From NCBI GenBank assembly GCA_035717985.1, contig DASTHW010000013.1:73436-137435 (forward strand): 64,000 nucleotides of DNA, given 5' to 3'. Numbering within the stretch: the stretch's first letter is position 1; every line of letters begins with the position of its first letter. The stretch comes from Candidatus Saccharimonadales bacterium (GTDB taxonomy: Bacteria > Patescibacteriota > Saccharimonadia > Saccharimonadales > UBA10212). This document shows, piece after piece, positions 1 to 63,325 of this stretch. Position numbers and translations under genes: made by a program. A model generated the notes under the pieces. That model saw nothing but the letters and a program-made list of their open reading frames with translations. It had not been told where the DNA came from and did no database searches.

Positions 1-370
1 CGAAATGGACGATGATTTGGGCTAGAGCTACAACTATTAGGCCAATAACTGCAAATGTGATGGTCTTTTTAGCGCCGGCTACGGCGTTTTCGCTACCGGC
101 GCTGGTAACAAACCGCAGACCAGCCACAATTATCATTATCACGGCAATTGCTCCAGCTAGAACAGATAAGATATTGACAACATGAGCAATCGTAGCCGAC
201 AAATCGGGTCCGGCGTTAGGTGGCGGGCTAGTACAATTTGACGCCGACGAGCCGGCCACTTGGTTAACGGCACATTTGATATTGCCTACCGGCGTGTCGG
301 CTAAAGCTAAAGAAGAGCTGGCTAGTAGAGTTAAAACGGAAGACAAAATTAAAATTGTTTTTTTTATCAT
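1..370 (-). CDS. VirB2/TrbC-like T4SS pilin paralog (C-terminus cut by window edge)
   Basis: The ATG is at 368-370 (minus strand). It is absent from the ORF track because it runs off the window. My translation is MIKKTILILSSVLTLLASSSLALADTPVGNIKCAVNQVAGSSASNCTS... It shows a signal peptide and 2 Cys, then two hydrophobic helices separated by a basic loop (AGAKKTITFAVIGLIVVALAQ). The four neighbouring ORFs have the same architecture. There is a 4-nt overlap with the stop of the upstream gene. Confidence 0.6.
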   Translation of the reverse strand, partial: MIKKTILILSSVLTLLASSSLALADTPVGNIKCAVNQVAGSSASNCTSPPPNAGPDLSATIAHVVNILSVLAGAIAVIMIIVAGLRFVTSAGSENAVAGAKKTITFAVIGLIVVALAQIIVHF

Positions 371-768
371 GACAATATTTGGTCGGTTATTAGTCTAATT
401 ATAGTCCAGGCTAGGCCAATAATAATCAAGCCCACTATCGAGCTAACCATCCGTTTACGGGCATTGGCCGTACCCTCGGTACTGCCGCCGCTAGTAATTA
501 GCTGGAACCCGCTGATTAAAATCATCAGCACCGCCAGCATGCCGGCTAACACGGCTAAGATATCAACGGCAATTTGGATAATATTGACAACTGGGTTAGT
601 GGTTCCCTGGCTAGCGGCCTGCTGACAGATGGAACTGGTTTTACCGGAACCGTTCTTATAATTACAGGTCGGGGTGCTAAAAAAATTGAAGGCCAGCGCC
701 TGGCTAGCCGGCAAAATTAAAAGCCCTAGACTAAAAACGGCGGCCGCTAAAAATTTTTTAAATCGCAT
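367..768 (-). CDS. VirB2/TrbC-like T4SS pilin paralog
   Basis: 133 aa. Signal peptide ends in ASQALA. A Cys pair follows (TPTCNYKNGSGKTSSICQQ). Two TM helices flank the basic loop TANARKRMVSSIVGLIIIGLAW. This is the TrbC/VirB2 hairpin topology. Confidence 0.65.
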   Translation of the reverse strand: MRFKKFLAAAVFSLGLLILPASQALAFNFFSTPTCNYKNGSGKTSSICQQAASQGTTNPVVNIIQIAVDILAVLAGMLAVLMILISGFQLITSGGSTEGTANARKRMVSSIVGLIIIGLAWTIIRLITDQILS

Positions 769-1059
769 CTAGCTTACCCTATCAAGTACGAAGTTAACTA
801 TAGCTACGGCCGAGGCCGCTACAATGACGCCAACTAGGGCGTGGGCCAGCTGGCGCTTGGATTCCGAAATAATAGTGTCATTGCTACCGGCCCGGATATA
901 ACGAAAACCGGCAATCACCACCATCAACATGGCGATCGCCCCTACGAGCGTAAAAATGATATCTAAAATAGTCTGCAGGGTGTCACTGCCGGGGCCGCCG
1001 CTACCGCCAACCTTTGGCAGACTATGCGGACTAACTAATTGAGCCAAAAAATACAGCAT
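769..1059 (-). CDS. VirB2/TrbC-like small membrane protein (pilin paralog without Cys)
   Basis: 96 aa. Two TM helices (IIFTLVGAIAMLMVVIAGF / ALVGVIVAASAVAIVNFVL) are separated by the loop RYIRAGSNDTIISESKRQ. It abuts the neighbouring pilin genes with 0-4 nt gaps. Confidence 0.55.
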   Translation of the reverse strand: MLYFLAQLVSPHSLPKVGGSGGPGSDTLQTILDIIFTLVGAIAMLMVVIAGFRYIRAGSNDTIISESKRQLAHALVGVIVAASAVAIVNFVLDRVS

Positions 1060-1063
1060 ATAG

Positions 1064-1495
1064 CTACAGCTTATTCCCTATAAATGATACTAGCCCGCCG
1101 GCAATTAAAACCATAGCCAGTCCAATCAGCGAGTTAACTACCCGCTTTCGAGCCGAGACACCTTTTTCAGAATTACCTTGGGTAAATAAGTACTCAAAGC
1201 CGGCCACAATAATTGATATGACAGCCACGATGCCAGCTAGATATAACAGCATATCTAAAACTGCCAGGCCAATGGCCCAGGCCCCTTCCGGAAAATTCAC
1301 TCTGGGCACGCATTTGCCCAAAATATCTTTATTGCCAGTAGATATATATTCCCACCAGGTGGGGAAGCCAAAAAAGTGATGAGCCGAGTTAGCCGTATTA
1401 GGGTCGCAATTAGAGCCAACAGCCGCCATAAAAATCTGCAGTTTAACTAAAGCCGCGTACCACATCAGCCGAAAATACCCCCCGGAATTAGCCAC
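1064..1495 (-). CDS. VirB2/TrbC-like T4SS pilin paralog
   Basis: 143 aa. Contains 2 Cys (SNCDPN, GKCVPR). Two TM helices flank GNSEKGVSARKRVVNSLIGLAMV. An alternative in-frame ATG at 1465 forms an ATGA overlap with the upstream stop, so the true start is either 1495 or 1465. Confidence 0.6.
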   Translation of the reverse strand: MANSGGYFRLMWYAALVKLQIFMAAVGSNCDPNTANSAHHFFGFPTWWEYISTGNKDILGKCVPRVNFPEGAWAIGLAVLDMLLYLAGIVAVISIIVAGFEYLFTQGNSEKGVSARKRVVNSLIGLAMVLIAGGLVSFIGNKL

Positions 1496-1941
1496 TGCAG
1501 GAAGGCAAAGATAAACATAAAGACTACCAGCGCAATCACGGCATTAGCTATCCGCTTTTTGGCGTTGGCGGTCTGGGTAGAATTATCGCCGGCTATGGAG
1601 TACTGAATACCGCCAACAATAATCATGGCCGTTACAAAAATGCCGACGCCGGCGCTCAAAAAATCAACAATGATATTGATGTCTTTAGAAATCGGATTGT
1701 TGGCCGAGACGGCGTGCTGGCTCAGGCAATTATCAAATTTGTCCTCGCCACCGCCAGCCGAGCGGTTGATATTCAGGCAAGCCGTTGGCGTTTGATCCTC
1801 GCAGTCTTTCTGAGCCGTAGTATTTTTTTGATCAGCAAACTTCTGACAGGCTGGATCCACCGCTAATACTGCCGGGCTGGCCAGGCAAAAGGCTACCACT
1901 ACCGCCAAAATGATTTGTTTTAGGTTTTTTACTTTTTTCAT
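1465..1941 (-). CDS. VirB2/TrbC-like T4SS pilin paralog (4 Cys)
   Basis: The start was moved to the internal ATG at 1941 (MKKVKNLKQIILAVVVAFCLASPAVLA), which gives a clean signal peptide. The mature part has 4 Cys. Two TM helices flank TQTANAKKRIANAVIALVVFMF. Confidence 0.6.
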   Translation of the reverse strand: MKKVKNLKQIILAVVVAFCLASPAVLAVDPACQKFADQKNTTAQKDCEDQTPTACLNINRSAGGGEDKFDNCLSQHAVSANNPISKDINIIVDFLSAGVGIFVTAMIIVGGIQYSIAGDNSTQTANAKKRIANAVIALVVFMFIFAFLQWLIPGGIFG

Positions 1942-2061
1942 AACGCTTACATGAGCTTGCTTGAAATATAGCATAACCAAGCTCCAAAAGCTCTACTGGG
2001 GTGGCAACAGATTGTTAAGCTATAGTGCTTGTGCTAAAGTTTGGGTTAGTAATAATCTTTG

Positions 2062-5000
2062 ATGAGCAAATATAAAAACCTGTTTTTAATCATCCTTTTG
2101 CCGGTGGTTTTTCTGGCTACTTTTTTCGCGGTCAATCACAAGGCCCTAGCCGACAATATCAGTGACGCTAACATGAACCAAATCTGTGTCCCGCCGTACA
2201 TTTCTACCAGCCGCTCCGGCCATCACCAAATTAACGGCTGGCTAAACATAGATGTTAAAGACCGGGCTCACCTGACTGCCACCTATACGGCCGCCGGTAA
2301 CTGCGCCACACCGGCCGGCAGTGATTCCAGCTACTTCTTTGGTAATCAAACCTTCGCTCAAATTTTTCAAAATATCAGCGGTAAGGCCGGAGTTTTAGAT
2401 TTAGTAGACAACCAGGCTGATTCTGATGTCAGCTATAACGAGCCAGTCGGCTCTTCCGGCCAAGATGACACCAGGATCGACCAGTTCTCCGGCAATTTTG
2501 ACAATTTAATGCAGGATAAAACCGGCGGTCATGACGCCGTTATGAATATGGGCGACATAAAAAATGCCATTGCCAACGCCGAAGTAACTCTGGGTCTAGA
2601 GACTGACGACGTGGGCTACGGTTGCGGACCCAGCTATTGGAAGAATGAAAACTTTGTCTTAACCGACGGCAAGACCCCAGCTTGGCAGTGTGTAGATTCA
2701 ACTGACATTAGCGGTCTTGAAGGCTTTGTAATTGGCGTAGATAACTTCTCTGATTTAGATAACTTCAACATCACTTACTACGCCACTGCTAACGGCAATA
2801 CGCTGACGGTAACTCCGGTCTACAAAAACGAGCAGGGAGACCGGACTTTTACATGGTGCGGTAATCAAGGCAAATTTATCAACAAAAACTGCCAAGGTAG
2901 CTTAGTTTTGAATGCCAGCCAAAGTGATATTAACTCTCTGGGTACCGGCCAAGGCCAGTTCGCAATTAAAGACGGGAGTGGCAATACGGCTAATGTGGTA
3001 GTGGCTGGCACCGGCTCCAGCGTAGCCCAAGTCAATGGTGGCGGTGCGGTTAGCGCTACGCCTCCAGGCGGCACCAGCTCCGGCAAATCCTGCGAGGCTA
3101 ATTTTAATTTTGGCTTTGAATGGGTGGTTTGTCCTTTCCTTCGTATGCTGGACGCCGGCGCTGGCGCGCTTAATGGTTTTGTCGAAAATCAGCTGACTAT
3201 TTGTACCGGCGCTTCTGATACCACCGGGCAGTCTTGCGCTAACAATATTTTGACGCCGCAGGTACAAAATGCCTGGGCCATATTCCGCGATATCGCCTCG
3301 GCCCTGCTGGTGCTAGTCATGCTGGCCATGGTCTTTTCTCAGGCTATGGGGGGCGGCCTGCTGGACGCCTACAGCCTTAGAAAAATGCTCCCCAGGTTAG
3401 TGGCGGCCGTGATTTTGATGCAGTTATCCTGGGTGATTTTGAAATTTGCCGTTGACGTATCTAACGACTTAGGCGTAGGAATTCGAGATCTAATGTATGC
3501 GCCATTTGGCGGTCAAAGTAATATGAGCCTTCAGGGAGTGGTTAATAATGTTCTATCGGTTCACGGCGCCAAAGTTGCCGGAATAAGTGTAGCCAACGAT
3601 TCTTTTGCTTTATTCGGTGTGCTAGCTGGTTCTGTAGCTTTGGTAGCTAACCCAATCGGTCTTTTAACTTTAGGCTTTTTTGTGTTTGTCAGTCTTACTA
3701 CAGCCTTTTTGGTGCTGGTTCTGCGCAAACTGTTCATAATTATGCTGATTGTTCTGGCACCGGTGGCCTTAGTACTTTGGATACTGCCTAATACTGAAAA
3801 GTACTGGAAGATGTGGAGTTCTAACTTTTCAAAGCTTTTGGCTATGTATCCACTGATTATGGGTTTAATCGCCGCCGGGCGGATTTTTGCCTACATTACT
3901 TCCACTACCGGTAGCGGTAGCGTAACCAGTTTTGCCGATTTAGCTATCGTGCTGTTTGCTTTCTTTGCGCCTTACTTAATGCTACCCAAAGCCTTTAGCT
4001 GGGGTGGGTCGATGATGTCGGCGGCGGCCGGCCAAGTCCAAAACCGCCTACAAAAGCCGCTTATGGATAAGGGCAAGGAGGGCTTCAAGGGTATGACCGA
4101 GCGCTACCAGGGCCGGATGGGCAAAGCCTATGATCCCGGTGCTAAAGGCGTCAAAGGCTGGGGCAAAAAGGTCTTTTACAGAGTTGGGTCTGGCCACTAT
4201 AATCCACTGCCGGGCGCCCTTGGCGGTAAGCGCTCCCAGCGCCTTGCCATACAGGCTGGCGACAAATGGTCTCAAGAGCAAGACGAGCAGGCCGGAGCCA
4301 AAATTAAACGCGCCGGCGAAAAAGTGCTGGCCGAGGGCTACGATACCTACGTTAGAACTGATGATGGTAAGTATGCAAAATACCAACGTGACGCTGACGG
4401 AGAAATAATGAAAGACGCTGACGGCAAAGACATAAAAATTGAGGTAGGCTCTAAGGACGAGGCAGAGACTAAGCACCTGACCGGCGTAGCGGCTATGAAA
4501 CAAATGTGGGTCGACCTGGCCGAAGATGGCGATAAATATGAGAAGAAGATGGCAATTCGCCAGCTGACCGCTACCAGCTCCTGGCCGGAAATCCAGAGTT
4601 CATTTACTAAAAACGGTAAGCGGGTGATCGATACTGATGCCTGGGCCGATTCTATAACCACAAGCCCCGAGGATTACCCGCGGGTACTCCGAAGCCGTGT
4701 CGATGCCACGCCTCACATCGATAACGCCGCCAAGAAGGCGCTTAAGGCCGAACTTGAAAATACTGATATGGATGAGTTTGAGCAAAGACGCTTTGTTAGT
4801 GCTTTTAGGGTAGATTACGCTATTACTAAACAGCTTGACAACGAAGGCTTTGCCACTCAGAGTGATGGCTTTTGGGAAGAGGCAGCCAGAATGGCTAATA
4901 TGACAGGCGCAGACGGAGAATTAACGGCTCAAGCGCAACAGATCAGACAGCACTTGAAAGACCGCTTTTTCGCCATCCAGCAAATTGGGGGTACAGCCCC

Positions 5001-5148
5001 AGCGCAGTTACTGGGGCATTTGGCTAACGGCGGGGAACTGCAGAAAAATGTCGAATCTATATTGGGCCAAAGTGTTCAAAACTATATGCATGGGGATGGT
5101 ACACCAGGAACGCCGCCGCCCGCCCCTGAGCCAGAACCAGAGCCCTAG
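2062..5148 (+). CDS. VirB6/TrbL-like polytopic T4SS channel protein with large N-terminal exo-domain and long hydrophilic C-terminal domain
   Basis: About 1028 aa. It has a signal/anchor helix, then a Cys-containing exo-domain of roughly 340 aa. A block of at least 6 TM helices follows (about aa 400-640), then a charged tail of roughly 380 aa ending in PPPAPEPEPEP. The ATG at 2062 is preferred over the TTG at 2059. The position between the pilins and VirB3/VirB4 analogues fits VirB6. Confidence 0.6.
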   Translation: MSKYKNLFLIILLPVVFLATFFAVNHKALADNISDANMNQICVPPYISTSRSGHHQINGWLNIDVKDRAHLTATYTAAGNCATPAGSDSSYFFGNQTFAQIFQNISGKAGVLDLVDNQADSDVSYNEPVGSSGQDDTRIDQFSGNFDNLMQDKTGGHDAVMNMGDIKNAIANAEVTLGLETDDVGYGCGPSYWKNENFVLTDGKTPAWQCVDSTDISGLEGFVIGVDNFSDLDNFNITYYATANGNTLTVTPVYKNEQGDRTFTWCGNQGKFINKNCQGSLVLNASQSDINSLGTGQGQFAIKDGSGNTANVVVAGTGSSVAQVNGGGAVSATPPGGTSSGKSCEANFNFGFEWVVCPFLRMLDAGAGALNGFVENQLTICTGASDTTGQSCANNILTPQVQNAWAIFRDIASALLVLVMLAMVFSQAMGGGLLDAYSLRKMLPRLVAAVILMQLSWVILKFAVDVSNDLGVGIRDLMYAPFGGQSNMSLQGVVNNVLSVHGAKVAGISVANDSFALFGVLAGSVALVANPIGLLTLGFFVFVSLTTAFLVLVLRKLFIIMLIVLAPVALVLWILPNTEKYWKMWSSNFSKLLAMYPLIMGLIAAGRIFAYITSTTGSGSVTSFADLAIVLFAFFAPYLMLPKAFSWGGSMMSAAAGQVQNRLQKPLMDKGKEGFKGMTERYQGRMGKAYDPGAKGVKGWGKKVFYRVGSGHYNPLPGALGGKRSQRLAIQAGDKWSQEQDEQAGAKIKRAGEKVLAEGYDTYVRTDDGKYAKYQRDADGEIMKDADGKDIKIEVGSKDEAETKHLTGVAAMKQMWVDLAEDGDKYEKKMAIRQLTATSSWPEIQSSFTKNGKRVIDTDAWADSITTSPEDYPRVLRSRVDATPHIDNAAKKALKAELENTDMDEFEQRRFVSAFRVDYAITKQLDNEGFATQSDGFWEEAARMANMTGADGELTAQAQQIRQHLKDRFFAIQQIGGTAPAQLLGHLANGGELQKNVESILGQSVQNYMHGDGTPGTPPPAPEPEPEP

Positions 5149-5233: not shown

Positions 5234-5599
5234 TTGAGCTTTGACACCACGCTAGTCATCCTCATTGCCTTGGGGCTGTGCTTTTACTTCGCTACCTCCA
5301 TCGCGGTGATGGCGGTGCGGGAGCACTTCCGCAGGCTGGTGAGCGAAAAGAAGCAGGTGGGCCACCACCTGTTCTACGGAACGCTGGCGATCCTGCTGGC
5401 GGCCTTCTTCTACTTCTGGGGCATCATCATCATGGCCACAAAGCTGAATGCCGGCCAGGAAACGGCGGTAATCATCGCCGTGATCATGCTCGGCTTTGCC
5501 CGGGCCTGCTGGCGGCGGAAGAAGAATCGCCTCATCAGCCGGCTTGCGTGCCTTGGCCTGGCGGGCCTGGCCCTGCTCCTGCTGGCCGCGGCCTTCTGA
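5234..5599 (+). CDS. Small 4-TM membrane protein encoded by a GC-rich, foreign-looking cassette
   Basis: A TTG start lies 7 nt after a GGAGG Shine-Dalgarno. The 121-aa product is all helical-hydrophobic segments with RRKKNR-type loops. Third codon positions are overwhelmingly G/C (ctg, gcc, atc, ttc), unlike the flanking genes. Confidence 0.5.
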   Translation: MSFDTTLVILIALGLCFYFATSIAVMAVREHFRRLVSEKKQVGHHLFYGTLAILLAAFFYFWGIIIMATKLNAGQETAVIIAVIMLGFARACWRRKKNRLISRLACLGLAGLALLLLAAAF

Positions 5600-5752: not shown

Positions 5753-6760
5753 ATGGCAGTCTATAAGGTAATTCAAGATATTGAGGCTGAGGACAAACTG
5801 CTTGGCCCGCTGACTTTTAGAGGCCTGGTTTACGCCGGCGTAGCAGTACTGCTTGGCTTTATAAACTATAAACTGCTAATCAGCCCGTTAGGTGTCCTTA
5901 AGTGGCCGTTTATTTTTATCTTATTGCTCCCGATGTGCCTTTTCGGCGTACTAGCTAGCCCGCTAGGCCGCCAGCAACCGACCGAGGTCTGGCTACTGGC
6001 GCGAATTCGCTTTTTCTTAAAACCTCGTCTGCGCATTTGGGACCAATCCGGGATTAGCCAGCTGGTAAATATTACGGTGCCCAAGCGGGAGATTAAGCAG
6101 TTAACTAAAAATTTAAGCCAAAGCGAGGTAGCTAGCCGCCTGCAGGCTTTAGCCACCACCCTGGATAGCCGCGGCTGGGCGGTTAAAAACGTCAGTGTCA
6201 ACTTAAGCGCCACACCCAGCTACCTGGACGAGCTTAATTCAGACCGGCTGGTGGATGCCAGCAATGTAGTGCAAGAGGTCCCGGAGATAAACGTCCGGCC
6301 GGCCGATGATATTTTGGATGCTAAAAATAACACCACCGCTCAGAATTTTCAAACTTTGATTAATCAGGCTGAGGTAAAGCGTCGGGAGGAACTGCAAGCC
6401 CGCGTTGAGGCCGCCCGTAAGGCCGAAGCCGAGGCCGCCGAACGGGCCCGGCAGACTCAAGCCGCGGGAGCCGCGGCTATGCCGTCGGTGGCTCAAGCCC
6501 CAGCACCACAGCCAACAGCTGAAGAAGAATTCTTTACCAAGCACGCCGGCCATGACGAAAAAATCCATGATATCCGCCAAGCGCAGAGCCTGGAAGACAG
6601 AGGCAAATCAGCCATGTTGGTCCGCCGTAGTTCAAGAAGACCTACTAGAGTGACACGGCAAGGTCAAACTGCTAAACTGGAGCTAGCCCAAAGTGGTAAT
6701 GATTTAAGTGTGGCTTCTATAGCCCGGCTGGCTAATCAGCCAGGGGCTAGCCAAGCTTAA
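5753..6760 (+). CDS. PrgI-family / VirB3-like T4SS membrane protein with long charged C-terminal region
   Basis: The N-terminus is MAVYKVIQDIEAEDKLLGPLTFRGLVYAGVAVLLGF..., followed by a second TM helix. From memory this matches the PrgI-family signature (short cytosolic start, ED-K-hydrophobic-GPLT, two TMs). It lies directly upstream of VirB4. Confidence 0.55.
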   Translation: MAVYKVIQDIEAEDKLLGPLTFRGLVYAGVAVLLGFINYKLLISPLGVLKWPFIFILLLPMCLFGVLASPLGRQQPTEVWLLARIRFFLKPRLRIWDQSGISQLVNITVPKREIKQLTKNLSQSEVASRLQALATTLDSRGWAVKNVSVNLSATPSYLDELNSDRLVDASNVVQEVPEINVRPADDILDAKNNTTAQNFQTLINQAEVKRREELQARVEAARKAEAEAAERARQTQAAGAAAMPSVAQAPAPQPTAEEEFFTKHAGHDEKIHDIRQAQSLEDRGKSAMLVRRSSRRPTRVTRQGQTAKLELAQSGNDLSVASIARLANQPGASQA

Positions 6761-6797: not shown

Positions 6798-7622
6798 ATG
6801 GAAAACTCTCCCAATAATCCGGCTCTTGGCGCAAGCACCGCCCAACCTCCGGCTCAAGGCGGCCCCGCTCAGCCGGCTGTTAAGAATAACCCCAACAGCA
6901 CTCAAAACACCCTGCTGGTCAGCGAAGTCCGCGACGGCATTGTGATTATGAATGACGGCACTTTTCGGGCCGTAATTATGTGCAAGTCCATCAACTTTGA
7001 TCTGATGAGCCCGCAGGAAAGAGAAGCGGTAGAGTTTAGTTATCAGGGCTTTATTAACTCACTTTATTTTCCGATTCAAATTCAAATCAGAAGCCAAAAA
7101 GTAGACCTTAGACCGTATTTGGAAAAGCTGGATAAAATCCGCTCTGAGCATGAAAACATGCTACTCGCCCTTTTGATGGAAGACTACATTACCTTTCTAG
7201 GAAGTATTGCTCAGCAGACCAACATTATGGATAAGAAATTCTATGTGGTGATTGAGTATCCGGACCCCGATGAAAAGGCCCGTAGCGCCGTCAACCAGTC
7301 CAAGGGCTTTTTCAGCGGCCTGGCCGGCCTATTTACACCTAACAAATCGCCGCAGATAACTATTAATGAAGCCCTACTAGAAGCCGGCAAGACCGAGCTA
7401 CGCAACCGTGTGCAAGCGGTTATGCAGGGGCTCCAGCAGTGCGGCATCCAAAGTCTGCCGCTGGACACTCAAGAGTTGATTGAGCTTTACTACGACGCCT
7501 ACAATCCAGATACCGCCACCCGCCAGCAATTAAAAAATTTCGATGATATGAACACACCGGTAGTAACTAAGGGTACCGGACAAGCCCCCCAGCCAAAACT
7601 TGATAGGGAGGTGCCGGCCTGA
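6798..7622 (+). CDS. Protein resembling the N-terminal domain of Gram-positive VirB4-family ATPases (split virB4, part 1)
   Basis: 274 aa. The segment VSEVRDGIVIMNDGTFRAVIMCKSINFDLMSPQEREAVEFSYQGFINSLYFPIQIQIRS resembles, from memory, the N-terminal module of TrsE/PrgJ/Tn916-Orf16-type VirB4 proteins. Its stop overlaps the ATG of the next ORF (TGATG, 1 nt shared). Confidence 0.5.
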   Translation: MENSPNNPALGASTAQPPAQGGPAQPAVKNNPNSTQNTLLVSEVRDGIVIMNDGTFRAVIMCKSINFDLMSPQEREAVEFSYQGFINSLYFPIQIQIRSQKVDLRPYLEKLDKIRSEHENMLLALLMEDYITFLGSIAQQTNIMDKKFYVVIEYPDPDEKARSAVNQSKGFFSGLAGLFTPNKSPQITINEALLEAGKTELRNRVQAVMQGLQQCGIQSLPLDTQELIELYYDAYNPDTATRQQLKNFDDMNTPVVTKGTGQAPQPKLDREVPA

Positions 7623-9733
7623 TGTTGGGCATGGGTAAAAGTGAGCCCCAGGTTGACCCGGCGGTCCTAGCCCGGGCCCGGGAACAGCAAGAGGTTAATG
7701 CCGCCTTTGCTAAAGGCGTAACGGCTCTGCGTGATTTTATTGCACCTAGCTCACTGACTTTCGCCGGCAACTATTTTCAACTGGGCACCCGCTTTGCCCG
7801 GACATATTACGTTTATGGCTACCCCCGTCAGCTATATACCGGCTGGCTATCGAGCATGGTCAACCTAGATGAAGTTATCGATCTATCGATGATAATTCAC
7901 CCGGTGGACAGCCAAATCGTGCTGGAGAATCTGCGCAAAAAAGTTAGTCAGCTAGAGGCCGGCATCCGAATTGACGAAGAGGCCGGCAAGGTCCGTGATC
8001 CGGGCAAAGAGGCCGCCGTCCAAGACGCCGAGGAGATGCGCGATAAGCTCCAAGTCGGCGAGGAGCGCTTTTTCCGCTTTGGCTTTTACTTCACCATTTA
8101 CGGCGGCTCCCTGGACGAGCTGGAATTCGTCAGCCACAAGGTGGAGTCTCTGCTCGGTCAGCAGTTGGTTTACTCTAAGCCGGCTACTGCCCAGCAGGAG
8201 CAAGCCCTAAACAGCGTCATCCCGCAGTTTACCGACCAGCTTCAGATCTACCGTAACATGAACACCGGCGCTTTGAGCACCAGCTTTCCATTCACCAGCG
8301 CTGATCTGACCCAGGAAAACGGCATTTTGTATGGCATTAATATGCATAATTCCGGCCTGGTAATTTTTGACCGCTTCAGCTTAGAAAACAGCAATAGCGT
8401 AGTATTTGCTAAATCCGGCGCCGGCAAAAGCTTTACGGTCAAACTGGAAGCTCTGCGCTCCATGATGTTTGGCACCGAAATCATCATTATTGATCCGGAA
8501 AACGAATATCAAAAAATGTGCGACGCTGTGGGCGGCGCCTACGTGCGCCTTAGCCTAAATAGCGCCACCCGGATTAACCCATTTGATCTGCCCCAAGTTG
8601 TTGATTCTGAGGAGGCCGATAATCCGCTGAGGTCTAATTTGATAACTCTCCACGGTCTACTGCGCCTAATGATGGGCGGCGCCCAAGCCCAAATGCAGGC
8701 TCAGGGCGGGGCGGCCGTCATGCCGGCACTTAGCCCGGCTGAAGAAGCCGACCTGGATGCCGCCCTGATTGAAACTTACGCTAAAGCTGGCATTACCAAC
8801 GACCCGTTAACCCACGGTGCTACGCCGCCAACCGTTACCGACCTTTACGATACTTTGCTTCACATGGGCGGCACCGGCCCTCAGCTAGCCCAGCGCCTGC
8901 GTAAATATACGTCAGGCACCTTTGCCGGCATTTTCAGCCAGCAGAGCAATATCAACGTCAATAATTCGATGGTGGTCTTTAACATTCGCGATTTAGAGGA
9001 CGAACTGCGGCCGGTAGCCATGTATATTGTGCTGAATCACATCTGGAACCGGACCAAGGTTGATAAAAAACGCCGGATTATGATTGTCGACGAGGCCTGG
9101 CAGTTAATGCGCTATGAAGATAGCGCTAACTTCTTGTTCAGTCTCGCTAAACGGGCCCGCAAATATAACCTGGGCATCACTACCATTTCGCAAGACGTGG
9201 AAGATTTTATGGCTAGCCGCATGGGCCGGGCGATTGTAGCCAACGCCTCTATGCAGATACTGCTCAAACAGTCACCCAGTGCGGTTGATGTGCTGGCCGA
9301 CGTCTTTAAGCTGACCAGCGAAGAGAAAAAGCGCTTAAGCCAATTCCCGGTAGGCCAGGGCTTGTTCTTTGCCGGCCAAAATCATGTTCACATCCAAGTT
9401 ATTGCCAGCCCGACAGAGTCTGAGCTAATCAGCACCACGCCCACTGTTAATGAGCCGTTGTCAGACGCCGATATTTTGTCTAAATTTATGCCGGCCGGCT
9501 ACACGCCGGGCGCAGAAGCGGCGCCCGAGCCGATTCCCCCGGCCATCTCAAACCCGCCAGCACAGCCTTCGTCCGCACCCACCCAGCCCGCCATCACTAC
9601 CCCAGCCTCCCCAACTCCGGCTATGCCGCCAGCACAGGCTGACGCTACCACTTTATATTTGCATCCGCAGGCCGGAGTCTCTGCCAGTACCGGCACGCCA
9701 ACCCCGCCAAGCCAGCCATTGACAGGAGCCTAG
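7622..9733 (+). CDS. virB4: VirB4-family T4SS ATPase (central and ATPase domains) with Pro/Ala/Thr-rich C-terminal tail
   Basis: 703 aa. Walker A is FAKSGAGKSF and Walker B is RRIMIVDEAWQLM. The upstream motif FIAPSSLTFAGNYFQLGTRFARTYYVYGYPR is typical of VirB4/TrsE. The last 75 aa or so are low-complexity P/A/T/S. Confidence 0.9.
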   Translation: MLGMGKSEPQVDPAVLARAREQQEVNAAFAKGVTALRDFIAPSSLTFAGNYFQLGTRFARTYYVYGYPRQLYTGWLSSMVNLDEVIDLSMIIHPVDSQIVLENLRKKVSQLEAGIRIDEEAGKVRDPGKEAAVQDAEEMRDKLQVGEERFFRFGFYFTIYGGSLDELEFVSHKVESLLGQQLVYSKPATAQQEQALNSVIPQFTDQLQIYRNMNTGALSTSFPFTSADLTQENGILYGINMHNSGLVIFDRFSLENSNSVVFAKSGAGKSFTVKLEALRSMMFGTEIIIIDPENEYQKMCDAVGGAYVRLSLNSATRINPFDLPQVVDSEEADNPLRSNLITLHGLLRLMMGGAQAQMQAQGGAAVMPALSPAEEADLDAALIETYAKAGITNDPLTHGATPPTVTDLYDTLLHMGGTGPQLAQRLRKYTSGTFAGIFSQQSNINVNNSMVVFNIRDLEDELRPVAMYIVLNHIWNRTKVDKKRRIMIVDEAWQLMRYEDSANFLFSLAKRARKYNLGITTISQDVEDFMASRMGRAIVANASMQILLKQSPSAVDVLADVFKLTSEEKKRLSQFPVGQGLFFAGQNHVHIQVIASPTESELISTTPTVNEPLSDADILSKFMPAGYTPGAEAAPEPIPPAISNPPAQPSSAPTQPAITTPASPTPAMPPAQADATTLYLHPQAGVSASTGTPTPPSQPLTGA

Positions 9734-9745: not shown

Positions 9746-12700
9746 ATGGCTGAACCGGCAAGACAGTTCGACGAGGAGCAGACTCCGGGTAATGCCGACT
9801 CATCTCCGCCCGGCCGGCCGGAACTTCGGGCTCTAGAAGGCGGCGGCGAAACCAGCCCGCCTGAGCGTAGCTGGTACACCGGCGACGGTAGCGATCAGAC
9901 GGATAAAGAAAAACTATCTGGCTCCGAGAACTCTCCAGCCGAATCCAAATATAAAGATCAGGTTGGCTCTGGATATAAAAATACTCAGCCCAAGAAAACG
10001 ATTCGATCGCGGCTAGCCAGTCGTAAACGTCGGATTATATTCGCCGGCATATCGGCGCTCATTGCTCTAGGTATTTCTATAGCCGGATTCTTTTTTCTTT
10101 TACCATACAAGCTTAATTTCATCATGAACGATCTAGAAAAACACTACTATTCATCTACCCAAAATGCTATGGACAAAGAAGTGGATTCTTTATTTAGTAA
10201 TTATCTTCGGAATAAGGTTTTACCCAGCCTCAGATCCGGCAAAACCTGCGGTACTTCAGTGTTATCAACCATAAATCGTAAGTGTACAACCATCGTCCAG
10301 GGAAGCGGTTTAGTGAATAAGCTCTATAGCTCTTGGTCGCAAGCCCATATGGAAAATGATTTGGCTAATAAATACGGCATAGAATTTGGGTATGAAGGTG
10401 GTAATTACTATATGAAGGCACCCGGTCTAGGTCTAGATGATACCAAATACAATATTGATGGTTTTGCAAAAGCTAGTGGCGAAAGTTTAGATGATTTTAT
10501 CAGTAAAGATCCTCAGTTAACTGGCTTCGGAAGTACTAAAGAGTTTAAGGCCGCTGTGGCGGCTAAGCTGGATACTGCCCTGCAGAATGAGTCCAGATAT
10601 ACCCAAGTAATGTTCAAGTACAAAGTCGGCAGATACCTTGAAAAGAAATTCGGCATAAAGCGGTGTATCGTTGCTTGCGATACACGCCGCGATTTTAGTG
10701 ACTGGAAAAACAAGAAAAAAGCCGCAACTTTAATCCGAGCCCAGCGTGTTCTTCAACCAAATAATCAATTACTGGCTTTTGTCCTAGGCTGTATCGGGAA
10801 AGGCGGCCCCGTCACTGGTGATTGCAGTGTATTAAAGAAGGAGGATCCATCTTCTCAGCCTGTTGAGGATCCAAATGGAGATGGCTGTACGGCCAACTGT
10901 GTAACAGGAGGCGAACCATTAAGTCCGGCCGACACTGAAATAGAGGCGACTATGGGCAACTTAGCGGCTGAATATGGTATCTCGAGCGAAGAGGACGTAG
11001 CAAAAGCCCAAAAAATTTATGATGACCTCACGGGTAAGGGGGGCTATAAAAAATATTTAGTGAGCCAGGTAGTAGATAACCTGCTATCTGGTGCCGGGCT
11101 AAGCGATGACGCATCTAAAGCAGTGGCTAACTCCGCTGGAAAATTGGTAGCAGGAGATGTTCCCGGTCTTGGCGAAGTTCTGCTAGTCGGTAAATTAAAT
11201 AGCATGGCTTTGGCGGCCGGTGCCATCTTGCCGGCTATGGGCTACGCTCTACAGACTCAAACCATGGTGCATGAGTACTCGATATACCGAACTTACTTAG
11301 ATGAATTAAAAACCGGTAATGTTTCTGCTAGCATGGTAGGCTCTTTCACGGATTCGTTAGGGCCGGGCAACCAGGATCCCGCCAATACAGATGATAGTGA
11401 AATTGGTGGAACAGCATCAGCCGAGCAAACACCTCTATATAGTAGTCTGATTGGCGACGGTAGCGGCAAAGGAAGTTCCAATTATTTATGTGATAACGGC
11501 AAACCCGTGCCAGCCGGACAGCTAGTTTGCCCAGAAGAAAAGGTTGATGTTAAAACCAAAGCCGATGCTTTATCTATAGTTAATCGTGAGCCTTCTTTTG
11601 TTAAGCAGGCCACTGGTGTAGCTAACGATTTGTCAAATTGGCTTGGTGAATTAGCTTCCAAGGTCTTCGGTATTTTACATCTTAATGGTTTACTAAATCG
11701 GGCTGTCAGCGGTTTCCTTAGCTTGACTCACATAAATGGTCTCCTGGACGATTTAGGAAATTATCTGAAGGATGAATTTCTGCCCCCCGCTATCGTGGGG
11801 CCAAATACCAGTGGCGGCCGGACATTCGACATGATAGCCGCTGGTAATGATGTATCTGCCAATGACTTTGCTCATAACGGCTTAGGCGGCGTGGCTTTAA
11901 GCCAACAACAAAGTATAGCCATTGCCAATGAACAAATGGAAAGCCAGGCTATGCAGAATAGCGATCAGCCGGTTTTAGCCCGCCTTTTTAGCACCAATGA
12001 CTCTAATTCCTTACTTGGTAAGATAGCGCTTAATATGCCCTCTGGTGATGGCGATATCAAAACAAGTCTATCCAGCATCTTTAGCAATCCACTCCGTAAG
12101 GTCTTCTCCAGCTTCGCTGGAATTTTTGGCCGACGTGCTCTAGCTACCAGTGCCCAGCCTGATCCGTTTGACATTACGCAGTACGGCTACCCCGTTAATG
12201 ATCCAATTTTCAATCAAGACCCTGAAAAGTATTGGAGCCAGCATTGCATAGCTAATGCCGAAACGGTGGCCTGGAATACCGAAGCGGCAAATGTCGCCAA
12301 CTCAAATCCTAACGGCCTATACATAGCTGATAATCTTCAGCCTTCACAAACCGGCCGGCCATCGCCCACCGGTGACCCAATGGGCACCAACCCTTGTTTA
12401 TTAATTCAGGCCGCTGTTGGGAGTGTTGGTGGAATATATAATTCTAGTCTCTTAACCAATGATGATTTAGGAGACAGTTCTTCGGTCGGCTTTAACGAAT
12501 CATCGGCGGCTCCGGGCGATACCAGTGCTTATCAAAATCCCCTACGTGACGTTCAAAAGAACGGTTCGCTGGTACCGCAAAGAGTTGACCAGGGTGTAGA
12601 CTACGGAGGCTCGGGATCGGTTTATGCTATTGGGCCTGGCACAATTTTAAATATCAGTAACAGCGGCTGGTCTGTGGATGGAGGTCCGCCAACGTTTATT

Positions 12701-13048
12701 GTCTACCAGCTTTCCAGCGGCCCGGCTCAAGGAAAAGCCGTTTATGTGGCAGAGAACTGCATACCAAGTCCTCAGCTTAAAATAGGCGAAAGCGTAGACA
12801 GCAGTACGCCGCTTTGTACTATGGTTGACACTCCTCCACATATTGAAATGGGGTGGGCGGATGGATCGGCATTGGGTCAGGCGGCCGCTCACAGTTCCTG
12901 GGGGTCAAGTGTTGATGACCTTCAACACTACACCGCATACGGTCTTAACTTCTCTCAACTCCTCACCAAGCTGGGTGCACCTCCTGGAACAATCCAGTCT
13001 GGAGCTCAACTACTTGGTAGCTTACCTAGTGGGTGGCCTTCATGGTAA
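9746..13048 (+). CDS. 1100-aa single-pass membrane protein of the T4SS locus, C-terminal LytM/M23-like (probably degenerate) domain
   Basis: The N-terminal roughly 100 aa are disordered and are followed by one TM helix (IIFAGISALIALGISIAGFFFLL). A huge exo-domain follows. The C-terminal segment RVDQGVDYGGSGSVYAIGPGTILN...GKAVYVAENC...LKIGESV...PPHIEMGW follows the M23 strand order, but the metal-ligand His positions look substituted. Confidence 0.55.
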   Translation: MAEPARQFDEEQTPGNADSSPPGRPELRALEGGGETSPPERSWYTGDGSDQTDKEKLSGSENSPAESKYKDQVGSGYKNTQPKKTIRSRLASRKRRIIFAGISALIALGISIAGFFFLLPYKLNFIMNDLEKHYYSSTQNAMDKEVDSLFSNYLRNKVLPSLRSGKTCGTSVLSTINRKCTTIVQGSGLVNKLYSSWSQAHMENDLANKYGIEFGYEGGNYYMKAPGLGLDDTKYNIDGFAKASGESLDDFISKDPQLTGFGSTKEFKAAVAAKLDTALQNESRYTQVMFKYKVGRYLEKKFGIKRCIVACDTRRDFSDWKNKKKAATLIRAQRVLQPNNQLLAFVLGCIGKGGPVTGDCSVLKKEDPSSQPVEDPNGDGCTANCVTGGEPLSPADTEIEATMGNLAAEYGISSEEDVAKAQKIYDDLTGKGGYKKYLVSQVVDNLLSGAGLSDDASKAVANSAGKLVAGDVPGLGEVLLVGKLNSMALAAGAILPAMGYALQTQTMVHEYSIYRTYLDELKTGNVSASMVGSFTDSLGPGNQDPANTDDSEIGGTASAEQTPLYSSLIGDGSGKGSSNYLCDNGKPVPAGQLVCPEEKVDVKTKADALSIVNREPSFVKQATGVANDLSNWLGELASKVFGILHLNGLLNRAVSGFLSLTHINGLLDDLGNYLKDEFLPPAIVGPNTSGGRTFDMIAAGNDVSANDFAHNGLGGVALSQQQSIAIANEQMESQAMQNSDQPVLARLFSTNDSNSLLGKIALNMPSGDGDIKTSLSSIFSNPLRKVFSSFAGIFGRRALATSAQPDPFDITQYGYPVNDPIFNQDPEKYWSQHCIANAETVAWNTEAANVANSNPNGLYIADNLQPSQTGRPSPTGDPMGTNPCLLIQAAVGSVGGIYNSSLLTNDDLGDSSSVGFNESSAAPGDTSAYQNPLRDVQKNGSLVPQRVDQGVDYGGSGSVYAIGPGTILNISNSGWSVDGGPPTFIVYQLSSGPAQGKAVYVAENCIPSPQLKIGESVDSSTPLCTMVDTPPHIEMGWADGSALGQAAAHSSWGSSVDDLQHYTAYGLNFSQLLTKLGAPPGTIQSGAQLLGSLPSGWPSW

Positions 13049-14274
13049 AGATAAAGGGCTTGTTGAATCTAAATTACAGGAAAATTCTGCCGATTTTAAT
13101 GGCCTTGGCCCCCTTAGTCCTTAGTGGTCAGTCGGTCATCGCACAGAGCCTAAGTCAAGGTGACCTTAATAGTATTTACGACAATACGGTTTGGTACCAG
13201 CCGAGCGGCAATGGATGTACAGCAAATGTTGACGTCAGTCTAAGCGGCAATGGACAGATTCAGCAGGCATTTAACTTCTTTGTGTCAAAAGGGCTGTCGG
13301 CCGAGCAGGCGGCTGGTATCGTCGGCAACTTTAAGTGGGAGTCGGGGGTGGACCCCACCAAAGAAAATGGCGGCACCGATAGCAATACCCCCGGTGACAC
13401 CTGGGGTATTGCTCAGTGGACACAGTCTAGCGGAAGACTGGGGAATCTTGAAAAATATGCTCAGCAAAATAATTTAAATATAGACGATTTGGCAACTCAG
13501 CTGGCTTTTGCCTGGTATGAACTTAGTCAGGGAACCGAGACAAATGTTTTGGGTTATCTTAAACAGGTTAGCGGTTTCGGAATCCAGGCCGTAGATTCGG
13601 CCTCAAATATCGTTTTCAACAACTACGAGGGAGCCGGTGACGCAACCGGCCCCAAGCGCGCACAGCTATCTGAGGAGGTTTACCAGCAATACGGCGGGTC
13701 TACCGGCACCACTATCTCAACACCTATTGATAGCACTGGGTGTGCGAGTGTGGGGCCGGGGCAAGATACTCAATACATAAACGGGTTTACTGTCTATAAC
13801 CAATATGACCCCTCCTGGGCCAATGATCCCTACGGTAGCACAACCATTGCCGTAGCAGGATGCGGTCCTAGCGCCATGGCCATGATTATCACTGCTCTCA
13901 CCGGCCAACAAGTTACGCCAGATGTTGCGGCCCGATATGCTGATAGTCAAAACTTATATGTTGATGGTGAAGGAAGTAGTTGGAGTATTTCACCCGTCCT
14001 AGCCCAGCATTGGAACCTTCATGCCACCCTAATAGGGGCAGATACCGCCAAGATTACAGCCGCCCTACAAAGCGGCGCATTAGTCATCGCGGCCGGTGAG
14101 GGGCCATCTCCATTTACAAGCGAGGGCCACTTCTTGGTAATCCGCAGTGTAACTGCTGACGGCATGTGGCAGGTGGGTGACTCAGGGAATAGCTCAACAA
14201 GCAGTAAGGATTGGAGTCCGCAACAACTTACTGCTAGCATGAACGGAGGGAGTGTGTATGCGATTAGCAAATAG
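13042..14274 (+). CDS. Bifunctional cell-wall hydrolase (lysozyme-like N-domain plus papain-like Cys peptidase C-domain), VirB1/CwlT analogue
   Basis: There is a signal peptide. The motif GIVGNFKWESGVDP...WGIAQWT...LEKYA resembles the phage-tail-lysozyme family. The C-terminal AGCGPSAMAMIITALTG ... GHFLVIRSV gives the Cys/His of a C39-like/NlpC-type peptidase. The ATG at 13042 is preferred to the GTG at 13033. Confidence 0.75.
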   Translation: MVKIKGLLNLNYRKILPILMALAPLVLSGQSVIAQSLSQGDLNSIYDNTVWYQPSGNGCTANVDVSLSGNGQIQQAFNFFVSKGLSAEQAAGIVGNFKWESGVDPTKENGGTDSNTPGDTWGIAQWTQSSGRLGNLEKYAQQNNLNIDDLATQLAFAWYELSQGTETNVLGYLKQVSGFGIQAVDSASNIVFNNYEGAGDATGPKRAQLSEEVYQQYGGSTGTTISTPIDSTGCASVGPGQDTQYINGFTVYNQYDPSWANDPYGSTTIAVAGCGPSAMAMIITALTGQQVTPDVAARYADSQNLYVDGEGSSWSISPVLAQHWNLHATLIGADTAKITAALQSGALVIAAGEGPSPFTSEGHFLVIRSVTADGMWQVGDSGNSSTSSKDWSPQQLTASMNGGSVYAISK

Positions 14275-25265: not shown

Positions 25266-26234
25266 CTAACTTACTTGGGCGTCCCAGGCAAAGCTATTGC
25301 CAAAGTGGCCATAGCGGGCCGTTTGCTCGAACTGTGGCTTGCGCAAATCCAGGAAATCTATGATGCCCTTCGGTGTTAAATCATAGCCCTCTACCGCATG
25401 GCTTTGGCCATCAGCCACAATGGTAGCCTCTACCGGCTGGGCCACGCCGATGGCATAAGCTAAATAGCAAAAAACCTCTTTAGCTTTATTTTTTCTAATG
25501 TAATCTACGGCCACACGACGGGCCATATAGGCGGCAGAACGGTCTACCTTAGTGGCGTCCTTACCCGAAAAAGCGCCCCCGCCAATAGGGATTTGCGGGC
25601 CATAGTTGTCTATAACCAGCTTTCGGCCGGTTAGGCCGCTGTCGGCGTCGAAGCCGCCTTGGCTCCAATCACCCGAGGGGTTAGCAAAGATATCAACATC
25701 TTTAACATGCGGCCGACCCTTAAGCCAATCGCTTACGGCGGCGTACAAATCTTTGCCTTTGGCGTTTTGAAAGCTGGCTACCAGGGCCGTAATTTTACCG
25801 TCGGCTAGGGTAACCTGGGTTTTGCCGTCATAAGGCCAAAGCTTAAATAGATGTTGATTAAGACGGCGGGCCAGAACCACCTCTAGCGGTAAAAGCTCCG
25901 GTGTTTCACTGGTGGCGTAGCCCACCATAATGCCCTGGTCGCCGGCGCCGCCGCTATCTACTCCCTGTGCTATCTCTGGGCTTTGATGCACGATTTTTTG
26001 CCGGAGGGTAACATTGCCGGCCAGGCGCTTAACTATTGGCGTAATGTTCACCTGGCCGTTAGCGGTGACTTCGCCCACCACAAAAACCTCGCTGTGGCCG
26101 CCGACGGCCTCTACGGCTACCCGCGCGCTAGGGTCAATCCTAAGATAGGCGTCTAAAATAGCGTCTGAAATCTGGTCGCACAGTTTATCCGGATGTTTTG
26201 GTGATACACTCTCGGCGGTTCTAAATTTTGGCAT
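25266..26234 (-). CDS. metK: S-adenosylmethionine synthetase (compact 322-aa form)
   Basis: Contains ESVSPKHPDKLCDQISDAILDA, GAGDQGIMVGYA, GGGAFSGKDATKVDRSAAYMAR and TARYGHFG. All are hallmark MetK motifs. The protein is about 60 aa shorter than the E. coli enzyme. Confidence 0.92.
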   Translation of the reverse strand: MPKFRTAESVSPKHPDKLCDQISDAILDAYLRIDPSARVAVEAVGGHSEVFVVGEVTANGQVNITPIVKRLAGNVTLRQKIVHQSPEIAQGVDSGGAGDQGIMVGYATSETPELLPLEVVLARRLNQHLFKLWPYDGKTQVTLADGKITALVASFQNAKGKDLYAAVSDWLKGRPHVKDVDIFANPSGDWSQGGFDADSGLTGRKLVIDNYGPQIPIGGGAFSGKDATKVDRSAAYMARRVAVDYIRKNKAKEVFCYLAYAIGVAQPVEATIVADGQSHAVEGYDLTPKGIIDFLDLRKPQFEQTARYGHFGNSFAWDAQVS

Positions 26235-26239: not shown

Positions 26240-26390
26240 ATCCCTTCTTGTTTTCCCGGTCGGTCGGGACAGAAGGGCGTTATTTGCAAGCTTATCTACC
26301 CCGAAAATCGGGCTGGACTTGGCACCCAGCATTATCTGGGTTGTCGGCGGGTCGCAGGGCCATTTCCCTAGCCGCACTCTTGATAATTAA
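26240..26390 (-). promoter_or_regulatory. SAM-I (S-box) riboswitch controlling metK
   Basis: The minus strand reads TTATCAAGAGTGCGGCTAGGGAAATGGCCCTGCGACCCGCCGACAACCCAGATAATGCTGGGTGCCAAGTCCAGCCCGATTTTCGGGGTAGATAAG. This matches the SAM-I consensus blocks AUCAAGAG, AGGGA, GGCCC, CAACC, GUGCCAA and AGAUAAG. A hairpin CCCTTCT...AGAAGGG plus ATTTTTA follows and ends 3 nt before the ATG, covering the putative SD. Confidence 0.88.
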
Positions 26391-56012: not shown

Positions 56013-56618
56013 CTAGAAATTACCGAAGTAGTACCAAAAGCGTTTTAGAACCAGAGCGATAATTATGAGATACCAGACGATTAAAATGTCTAAATGATGA
56101 CGGCGGGCAAAGGTTGTCGCGCCCGCCAGCCGCTTAGGCTTTGTCAGATGGCCGGCGTCCAGGTTATATAAAGTGGTGTACCAAAAGGCCGGGATGGTTA
56201 CGGCCCAGGTAACCATGCAAAAAAGGCAGAGCGCACCGATTCGGTAAAGCGTTTCATACTGTAGCCAGGTGATAAAAACGATGGCAAAGGTCATACCAAG
56301 CTGGAATAGGCGCCAAAACCATTTTTTAAGCCGGGCGCCGGCCAGCAAAACAGAACCAACCGTGGCTACGGCCGCAAAACCGGCTAGGCCAAGGAAGGGG
56401 TTATAAAAACCAAAGGCCTCGGCTTGGTCAGAGCCGGAGACAGTAGAACAGCTAAAGATCGGGTTTAAGTTACAAACCGGCACGTAATGCGGATTTTTTA
56501 AGGTATCAATTTTTTCGATAGAAAGTATCAGCGAGGCCAATACCCCGATAATGCCGGCTATTAAAATCAACCACGGAAAAACCGTGCTCAATTTCTCACC
56601 CGCCTTCACTTTCGCCAT
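56013..56618 (-). CDS. Vitamin K epoxide reductase (VKOR) family disulfide-bond-forming protein
   Basis: 201 aa with 4-5 TM helices. The loop Cys pair is CNLNPIFSC and the redox motif is CLFC, as in bacterial VKOR homologues. Confidence 0.8.
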   Translation of the reverse strand: MAKVKAGEKLSTVFPWLILIAGIIGVLASLILSIEKIDTLKNPHYVPVCNLNPIFSCSTVSGSDQAEAFGFYNPFLGLAGFAAVATVGSVLLAGARLKKWFWRLFQLGMTFAIVFITWLQYETLYRIGALCLFCMVTWAVTIPAFWYTTLYNLDAGHLTKPKRLAGATTFARRHHLDILIVWYLIIIALVLKRFWYYFGNF

Positions 56619-60241: not shown

Positions 60242-60320
60242 ATTATTTCCTTATTTTGCGTTAGTTACAATTAGATGGCTATATTATAGTTGGACTATTA
60301 TAGGATGTATATCTTTACTT

Positions 60321-60413: not shown

Positions 60414-60420
60414 TCATGGG

Positions 60421-61916: not shown

Positions 61917-61962
61917 ATGTCTATACTTATATATAGAGGACTAATACAAAAAGGAGTAAGTT

Positions 61963-63303: not shown

Positions 63304-63325
63304 TGCTTAATTATATAATCCTCTG

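Follow-up and report, generated by a model that had tools for sequence, protein, structure and literature searches.

A tandem array of VirB2-type pilin genes beside dnaA in the chromosomal type IV secretion locus of a Saccharimonadales bacterium

Saccharibacteria and other Patescibacteria lack nucleotide, amino acid and lipid synthesis of their own, and live attached to host bacteria. Here, we analyze a row of small membrane-protein genes at the left end of a 64,000-nucleotide (nt) stretch of DNA from Candidatus Saccharimonadales bacterium (assembly GCA_035717985.1, contig DASTHW010000013.1, positions 73,436 to 137,435; henceforth the window). These genes are the VirB2-type pilin array of a chromosomal, origin-proximal type IV secretion system (T4SS) of a Saccharimonadales epibiont. 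In the literature, the T4SS of Patescibacteria is the only one reported to be essential for the growth of its owner, and it is unique among monoderm systems in having VirB2-like pilins. Quinonero-Coronel et al. (2025, Microb Genom; PMC12102498) searched 3,035 Patescibacteria genomes and found VirB2 arrays in 383 assemblies, mostly of Microgenomatia and Saccharimonadia; there are 441 such arrays, with 2-11 genes each. The mean identity within an array is 25%, most of the clusters are without a relaxase, and the T4SS genes often lie near dnaA.

The locus in the window resembles these published arrays closely: tandem PF18895/PF04956 genes stand near virB4 and dnaA, no relaxase or coupling protein is found nearby, and the paralogues share little identity. 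It is an instance of an already known kind, to which the window adds another example. The original prediction had seen a mark of unusualness in the number of genes, on the grounds that typical loci encode one major pilin; in this lineage, multi-gene arrays are the published norm. On one point our results differ from the published account, whose main text calls the arrays highly variable and, when searched by terms, contains no positional orthology. The classes of positional orthologues, the conserved distal gap and the pairing of cysteines (Cys) described below may be additions to it.

Another closely comparable system is that of Southlakia epibionticum ML1 (Wang et al. 2023, Cell; PMC10633639), for which Table S1 lists six pilin genes (SEML1_0014-0019), all six of them called essential by transposon sequencing (Tn-seq) at both T1 and T2. 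In ML1 (SEML1_0001-0020), the genes stand in the same order as here: dnaA-dnaN-recF come first, followed by genes for two small exported proteins, a lysozyme/peptidase, a protein of about 1100 amino acids (aa), VirB4, a TraC-like protein, PrgI and a VirB6-like protein, and then by a divergent array of PF18895 genes whose last member faces a convergent Hsp20 gene. The likeness extends to single genes, since the third member of the array is the short one in both organisms (103 aa in ML1, 96 aa here), and SEML1_0006 combines PF18013 with a cysteine-proteinase-fold domain (structure-based annotation, PMC10633639) in the manner of the hydrolase described below. ML1 differs in having six pilins where there are seven here, and in having two VirB6-like genes with an extra gene between them; essentiality has been shown in ML1 alone.

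Direct reading of window positions 1-1941 gives five tightly packed open reading frames (ORFs) on the minus strand, in agreement with the five genes and 0-4 nt junctions of the original prediction. In the direction of transcription these are P1 (1941..1465; 158 aa, or 169 aa from an alternative ATG at 1974), P2 (1465..1064; 133 aa), P3 (1059..769; 96 aa), P4 (768..367; 133 aa) and P5 (370..<1), of which at least 123 aa lie in the window before its edge cuts the gene. P1 and P2 overlap by 1 nt (TGATG), P2 and P3 are 4 nt apart, P3 and P4 abut with a gap of 0 nt, and P4 and P5 overlap by 4 nt (ATGA). P1 to P5 are thus packed for translational coupling.

The array continues beyond the window. Exact look-up of the P4 protein led to a contig of 9395 nt (L081; Logan SRR25158356) that is identical to the window across 8039 nt, with 0 mismatches, and runs 1356 nt past window position 1. 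It holds the complete P5 (129 aa; L081:7670-8059), which loses its final 6 codons and stop at the window edge, followed by P6 (154 aa, 4 Cys) and P7 (137 aa, 2 Cys), both flagged as PF18895 in precomputed hits. A hairpin 3' of P7 (-25.1 kcal/mol, z = -6.0 by folding) is a strong terminator, and the convergent Hsp20 gene comes after it. The array is therefore one of seven genes, and the earlier count of five was an artefact of the window edge. No additional member of the family was found elsewhere in the window.

The family identity of the proteins was assessed with hidden Markov models (HMMs). All five window proteins exceed the Pfam gathering cut-off for PF18895 (T4SS_pilin; 26.6 bits), with scores of 39.3 bits for P1, 30.4 for P2, 41.3 for P3, 47.0 for P4 and 42.8 for P5. 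For PF04956 (TrbC/VirB2; cut-off 27.9 bits), P3 is the sole window member above the cut-off (30.1 bits), while P4, P5, P2 and P1 remain below it at 21.8, 18.1, 17.6 and 15.1 bits; this family ranks second among all families for P3, P4 and P5, and third for P1 and P2. When the arrays of this and ten related genomes are taken together, 66 of 66 members match PF18895 and 39 of 66 match PF04956 at E<=0.01, the best at E=6.4e-10. Furthermore, an NCBI entry that is 100% identical to P4 carries the title 'pilin [Candidatus Saccharimonadales bacterium]'. With all five proteins passing PF18895 and their genes adjoining those of VirB6-like, PrgI and VirB4 proteins, the prediction that they are VirB2-like T4SS pilin paralogues is upheld.

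Structure prediction agrees on the core of the proteins. The homologue search for P4 returned 12 proteins, hence the AlphaFold2 alignments are shallow (15-16 rows); the models nevertheless consist of a helical hairpin in both P4 (helices 59-92 and 97-132) and P3 (25-56 and 61-95), each with a predicted local distance difference test score (pLDDT) of about 80, whereas the N-terminal segment is poorly modelled (pLDDT 51-60). In a Foldseek search of the P4 model against the PDB, the top match is the conjugative pilus of Aeropyrum pernix (8dfu; probability 0.93, template-modelling score 0.63 when normalised to the target, E=0.61). No PDB match at E<=0.001 was obtained with either model, and the matches of P3 are generic hairpins. 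A tblastn search of P3 against 72,556 plasmids likewise gave no match, so no link to plasmid-borne TrbC could be drawn from sequence. The fold search is uninformative because the protein is a simple two-helix hairpin, and the pilin assignment therefore rests on the HMMs and the gene context.

These results bear on the possibility that the genes encode unrelated small membrane proteins of the holin type, similar to pilins in hydrophobic composition only. Helical hairpins are common among protein folds, neither Foldseek nor the search of PDB sequences gave a significant match, and the window proteins do have weak matches to unrelated membrane families (DctQ, TMEM37). None of this accounts for five of five scores above the PF18895 cut-off, for a TrbC match as strong as E=6.4e-10 within the family, or for a linkage to VirB4, VirB6 and PrgI genes that is invariable in about 50 genomes. 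On the sequence evidence, we regard the holin-like explanation as refuted, both by the HMM results and by the conserved linkage to the T4SS, and give it next to no weight.

A hydropathy scan finds two C-terminal hydrophobic segments in seven of seven array members, connected by a short loop with a basic motif at its end (AKKR, ARKR, SKRQ or AKKT; also A(K/R)KR). This part of the plan that had been proposed for all members stands, but the universal signal or anchor does not. By hydropathy, the sole measure by which signal peptides were judged, P1, P4, P5, P6 and P7 each begin with a clear hydrophobic leader that has an AxA-like site; the leader is weak in P2, and absent in P3 and in most of its orthologues at position 3. 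An upstream extension of P3 is impossible, as its ATG is preceded by a stop codon at a distance of 4 nt. The Cys counts given earlier (2, 2, 0, 2 and 4, from P5 to P1) are correct for the mature parts, with one extra Cys within the signal peptide of P1. The sequences themselves are divergent: local BLAST identity between paralogues of the array is 23-64%, and P1 is 20-28% identical to the other window paralogues in pairwise comparison.

Two other processing signals were considered and rejected. A double-glycine leader in P3 (…KVGG/SGG…), to be cut by the C39-like domain encoded in the neighbouring operon, fails since the GG is not conserved in position-3 orthologues. A lipobox (…AAxC) in the P2 class is not fitted by the P2 of the window (AAVGSNC) or by several of its orthologues.

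Signal peptides in most members would also suit small effectors that are released by the T4SS or by Sec and act on the host. The TM7x papers call T4SS-adjacent genes 'putative effector genes', and the label 'Sec secreted array' is cited in the text of Quinonero-Coronel et al. (PMC12102498). However, two long hydrophobic helices are kept in every member and would anchor the protein in the membrane or in a polymer, every member matches pilin HMMs, and the same text counts the 'Sec secreted array' of TM7x among the VirB2 pilin arrays. Secreted effectors are thus a very improbable explanation.

The characterised pilins of the TrbC/VirB2 type (T-pilus VirB2, RP4 TrbC and F TraA) share with the present proteins a small size, a leader, two hydrophobic helices, a basic loop, homologues of VirB3, VirB4 and VirB6 encoded alongside, and similarity at the level of HMMs. 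They differ in that the cell here is a monoderm and has seven paralogues rather than one, that a segment of 25-60 residues with a Cys pair precedes helix 1, that one class is leaderless, and that P3 alone reaches the PF04956 cut-off. Among NCBIfam models, the top match of all five window proteins, over the two-helix core, is NF045849, the pilin-like conjugal transfer protein of Mycoplasma integrative and conjugative elements (Mbov_0395/MMCAP2_0565), although every score (22-37 bits) is under the model cut-off of 40. Mycoplasma belongs to a wall-less monoderm lineage (Tenericutes) that carries mating-pair formation systems of the FATA class (MPF-FATA), a class to which the Patescibacteria T4SS is related in the published account (PMC12102498).

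To compare arrays, an HMM was built from the window proteins and iterated over all ORFs of 80 related loci, which yielded about 290 pilin ORFs; without exception, these are divergent from the operon that runs from the VirB6-like gene to VirB4. ORF starts in these loci were set at the first start codon after a stop, and N-terminal lengths and position-1 Cys counts are accordingly noisy. Six genes is the commonest size among the 35 arrays that lie complete within their locus (26 arrays), followed by seven (6 arrays), eight (2 arrays) and five (1 array); the closest relatives of this genome have seven-gene arrays too. Every position in these complete arrays is an intact, positionally conserved ORF, which is not the picture of one conserved gene among decaying copies. 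Position 1 matches P1 in 50 of 50 loci, and position 2 matches P2 in 49 of 49. The best match between arrays falls at the same position in 79% of cases for the 26 six-gene arrays and in 82% for the 6 seven-gene arrays. The nearest relative of a pilin was found in another genome 215 times, as against 4 times in its own array.

The positions correspond to classes of distinct architecture. Members of the P1 class have a long, Cys-rich exposed segment and the C-terminal motif FAFLQWLIPGG, and those of the P2 class have a weak leader and the motif C..FFxFPxWWEYL..G.C with two conserved Cys. The P3 class is short (median about 100 aa), usually has no Cys, and has an (N/S)LP(K/R/H/Q) motif some 10-15 residues before helix 1; no signal-like hydrophobic N-terminus was detected in 35 of 46 position-3 orthologues. 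It may be remarked that this class does without a signal peptide although its N-terminus must cross the membrane. The remaining classes, to which P4 and P5 conform, have a signal peptide and one Cys pair, and the last class (P7) is the best conserved of all.

Conservation is uneven along the proteins. Orthologues are 22-49% identical in the N-terminal exposed segment as compared to 44-75% in the core, and the exposed segments of paralogues share about 17%. Whole pilins are 33-48% identical to their orthologues, compared to 83% for VirB4 and 69% for DnaA. Segment-wise amino-acid identity was used here instead of the ratio of non-synonymous to synonymous substitution rates, which is unsuitable because the pilin orthologues of even the nearest array-bearing relatives are 35-63% identical and synonymous sites are saturated.

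Such divergence could be read as a sign of interchangeable major pilin variants that serve host range, or escape from recognition by hosts or phages: the exposed segments differ widely between paralogues and between orthologues, the pilins evolve far faster than VirB4, and Quinonero-Coronel et al. suggest in their text adaptation to different host strains (PMC12102498). A precedent exists in Anaplasma, Ehrlichia and Bartonella, where several divergent virB2/trwL genes also stand in tandem in one T4SS locus and surface variation has been discussed. Antigenic variation or varied contacts with host cells are the functions proposed for those copies (PMC12102498), whereas the members here are old, architecture-specific positional orthologues. 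Origin by lineage-specific duplication, as in the Anaplasma/Bartonella model, does not agree with 215 nearest relatives in other genomes against 4 in the same array, or with a position kept in 79-82% of comparisons; the members are ancient orthologues rather than recent duplicates. In addition, the classes differ in architecture (P3 lacks a signal, P2 has the WWEY motif), the overlap of start and stop codons implies that the members are expressed together and not as alternatives, and the depletion of 6 of 6 ML1 genes in Tn-seq is unexpected under redundancy. Interchangeable variants are thus unlikely. The comparison of sequences favours a co-expressed, non-redundant set of subunits. Of the three functions offered by the original prediction, diversification of antigens or host range through interchangeable copies has the least support.

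The spacing of the genes is conserved as well. Across the 35 arrays, proximal junctions are mostly between -4 and +11 nt, and a gap of 60-120 nt (up to 160) precedes the last gene of six-gene arrays and the last two of seven-gene arrays. In the present array this gap corresponds to L081:8060-8122, with equivalents in the related loci L002, L004, L005, L008, L014, L029 and L055. Inspection by eye and with a loose regular expression finds TTGACT-N17-TATAAA and an AAGGA ribosome-binding site in the gap before P6, and of the 8 arrays with seven or eight genes, 7 have a loose version of the motif in that gap. This motif may be an internal promoter that sets subunit ratios. At the other end of the array, the divergent intergenic region between P1 and the VirB6-like operon (1942..2061) presumably holds promoters for both directions, a point on which the consensus promoter scan described below was uninformative.

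The exposed Cys follow a simple rule. Their number is even in 252 of 290 family members and exactly 2 in 181 of 290, while the membrane core is free of Cys in 251 of 290. The window also encodes, outside the T4SS locus, a VKOR homologue on the minus strand (56013..56618; PF07884, E=6.9e-40). This protein is a DsbB-like, disulfide-generating oxidoreductase and a candidate oxidant for the paired Cys, a link that we infer. The ORFs on either side of it (55377-55889 and 56876-57289) are without a Pfam match, and no DsbA-like partner was found there. The earlier suggestion that paired Cys imply extracytoplasmic disulfides is strengthened by the even counts, the Cys-free core and the VKOR gene, and is plausible in this genome.

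The plus-strand genes opposite the array encode the other parts of the machine. The first (2062..5148) encodes a VirB6-like (TrbL_3) polytopic membrane protein of 1028 aa, identified by a precomputed PF19590 hit on the identical L081 gene; our own Pfam hmmscan gave no match for it at E<=0.01. It is followed by genes for a PrgI family (VirB3-like) protein of 335 aa (5753..6760; PF12666, E=8.9e-10), a TraC-like protein of 274 aa (6798..7622; precomputed PF26593, in the same position as SEML1_0009) and a VirB4-type ATPase of 703 aa (7622..9733; PF19044 TraG P-loop, E=2.6e-27, and AAA_10). The TraC-like protein is about 68% identical across 77 related loci, and VirB4 is 79-94% identical to those of 80 GTDB loci, nearly all of which are titled Saccharibacteria, Saccharimonadales or Patescibacteria. 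Further along are a protein of 1100 aa with no Pfam match (9746..13048), the positional counterpart of SEML1_0007 (1113 aa), and a cell-wall hydrolase with lysozyme and Peptidase_C39_2 domains (13033..14274; PF18013, E=5.6e-27; PF13529, E=3.2e-9), with a role like that of VirB1 or PrgK. recF, dnaN, dnaA, rnpA and yidC are found at 15.5-21.3 kb; with recF-dnaN-dnaA adjoining it, the locus is chromosomal and lies beside dnaA, the usual site of the replication origin. Neither a relaxase nor a VirD4-type coupling protein came up when nearly all ORFs of 100 aa or more in the 64-kb window were scanned with Pfam.

Several observations concern this operon itself. With an identity to orthologues of about 30-45%, the VirB6-like protein, the 1100-aa protein and the hydrolase diverge as fast as the pilins, in contrast to the well-conserved VirB4 (83%) and TraC-like protein (68%) of the cytoplasm; since the envelope-exposed parts diverge fast, the whole outer face of the machine evolves quickly. 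A hydrophobic protein of 121 aa is encoded between the VirB6-like gene and the PrgI gene (5234-5599, plus strand), where the DNA is rich in GC (54%); its ORF is also a gene call on L081, and the 80 related loci contain no blastp match to it. Among the related contigs, the one whose VirB4 is closest (94%; L001, DATKKU010000027.1) is labelled 'Candidatus Binatia bacterium' and another (L035, DATLRC010000014.1) 'Candidatus Dormiibacterota'; both are probably Saccharimonadales contigs in wrong metagenomic bins.

Taken together, the whole is best explained by non-redundant, co-expressed VirB2-type subunits that would form a heteromeric tube or conduit, a reading to which we assign a probability of roughly 0.6. 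We regard the set as non-redundant because of the family membership, the T4SS linkage, the coupling geometry, the old positional orthology, the class architecture, the fast-evolving Cys-paired segments and the essentiality in ML1. A possible course of assembly can be outlined by analogy with the characterised VirB2/TraA pili, whose architecture is general background. Most subunits would leave through Sec and lose their leader to signal peptidase, P3 probably inserting without a cleaved signal, and the hairpin would then wait in the membrane, its basic loop turned towards the cytoplasm. The machinery of VirB4, VirB6-like protein and PrgI would pull the subunits out and stack them, with passage through a peptidoglycan gap opened by the lysozyme/peptidase of the operon. 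The product would be a single heteromeric tube or short conduit, associated with lipid and extending to the host bacterium, with its lumen lined by the basic loop and its outer, host-facing surface made of the disulfide-stabilised N-terminal segments. P6 and P7, which are distal, best conserved and located behind the gap, would be the likeliest bulk subunit, and P1-P5 specialised minor, base or tip subunits.

VirB2 also has a role in substrate transfer that is independent of the pilus. The seven proteins might accordingly be resident parts of a translocon in the membrane, with VirB2-like hairpins that form or line a channel together with the VirB6-like protein and no filament at all. The fold is a generic membrane hairpin, cryo-electron tomography of TM7x showed no T4SS pilus (PMC12206443), and the monoderm MPF-FATA systems that are the ancestors of this T4SS are without a pilus in the published account (PMC12102498). 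Such an arrangement would leave unexplained both the fast-evolving, disulfide-bearing extracellular segments and the need for seven classes, in a family that is homologous to the filament-forming TrbC/VirB2. We consider it rather unlikely.

A number of points weigh against the heteromeric conduit. No T4SS filament has been reported for any Saccharibacterium in the literature searched, and the filaments that were observed in TM7x by cryo-electron tomography were assigned to type IV pili (PMC12206443). The essentiality of the upstream pilin genes in ML1 could be a polar effect on downstream genes, and these pilin genes had only 11-15 input insertions each (PMC10633639). In six-gene arrays, orthology is less clean at position 4 (0.50 on the diagonal) and at position 5 (0.47). 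The structural likeness to solved pilins falls short of significance (best E about 0.6), and a profile of the 66 members compared with all PDB sequences found no pilin and nothing under E=0.97. As to the internal promoter, a consensus promoter scan of the array gave 4 sites compared to 6.2 expected, all on the wrong strand; the same consensus scan also overlooked the obvious terminator 3' of P7 that was confirmed by folding. Heteromeric assembly, the major and minor roles and the internal promoter are all things that we infer.

The remaining observations concern other parts of the window. Next to jag/yidC, a minus-strand gene (21919-24543) encodes a protein of 874 aa with a GDSL lipase/acylhydrolase domain; in an organism without the capacity for fatty acid synthesis, this could be an enzyme that scavenges host lipids. 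A SAM riboswitch (26289-26389, minus strand; RF00162, 55.2 bits) lies directly upstream of the gene for S-adenosylmethionine synthetase (25266-26234, minus strand). A cell-surface polysaccharide cluster of about 23 kb occupies 26434-49914, with genes for GDP-mannose dehydratase, epimerases, an ABC-2/Wzt exporter, two FkbM methyltransferases, several GT1/GT4 glycosyltransferases, a priming sugar transferase, Wzy_C and GtrA, and with a GC content down to 40% at 30-34 kb. Finally, a tRNA-Asn gene (58393-58467, plus strand) overlaps the 3' end of a called ORF for a large serine recombinase (58426-60075, minus strand) with Resolvase, Recombinase and Zn-ribbon domains. Beyond the recombinase, a stretch of low GC content (36-38%, compared to about 47% elsewhere) contains ORFs without a Pfam match, a SRAP peptidase and a NOV_C protein; the region 58393-64000 looks like a mobile element integrated at a tRNA gene.

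What these pilins build, be it a pilus, a short conduit or nothing extracellular, is a question that the class structure helps to frame, and old, position-specific, co-transcribed classes with paired exposed Cys argue against simple antigenic variation. A bolder reading, which we put forward tentatively and consider doubtful as yet, is that the seven pilins are fixed building blocks of one ordered organelle across Saccharimonadales, in which the signal-less P3, the Cys-rich P1, the WWEY-bearing P2 and the separately promoted P6 and P7 would be assembled in a defined order into a heteromeric conduit for exchange with the host. If true, this would be the first T4SS pilus of a monoderm and the first that is obligately heteropolymeric.

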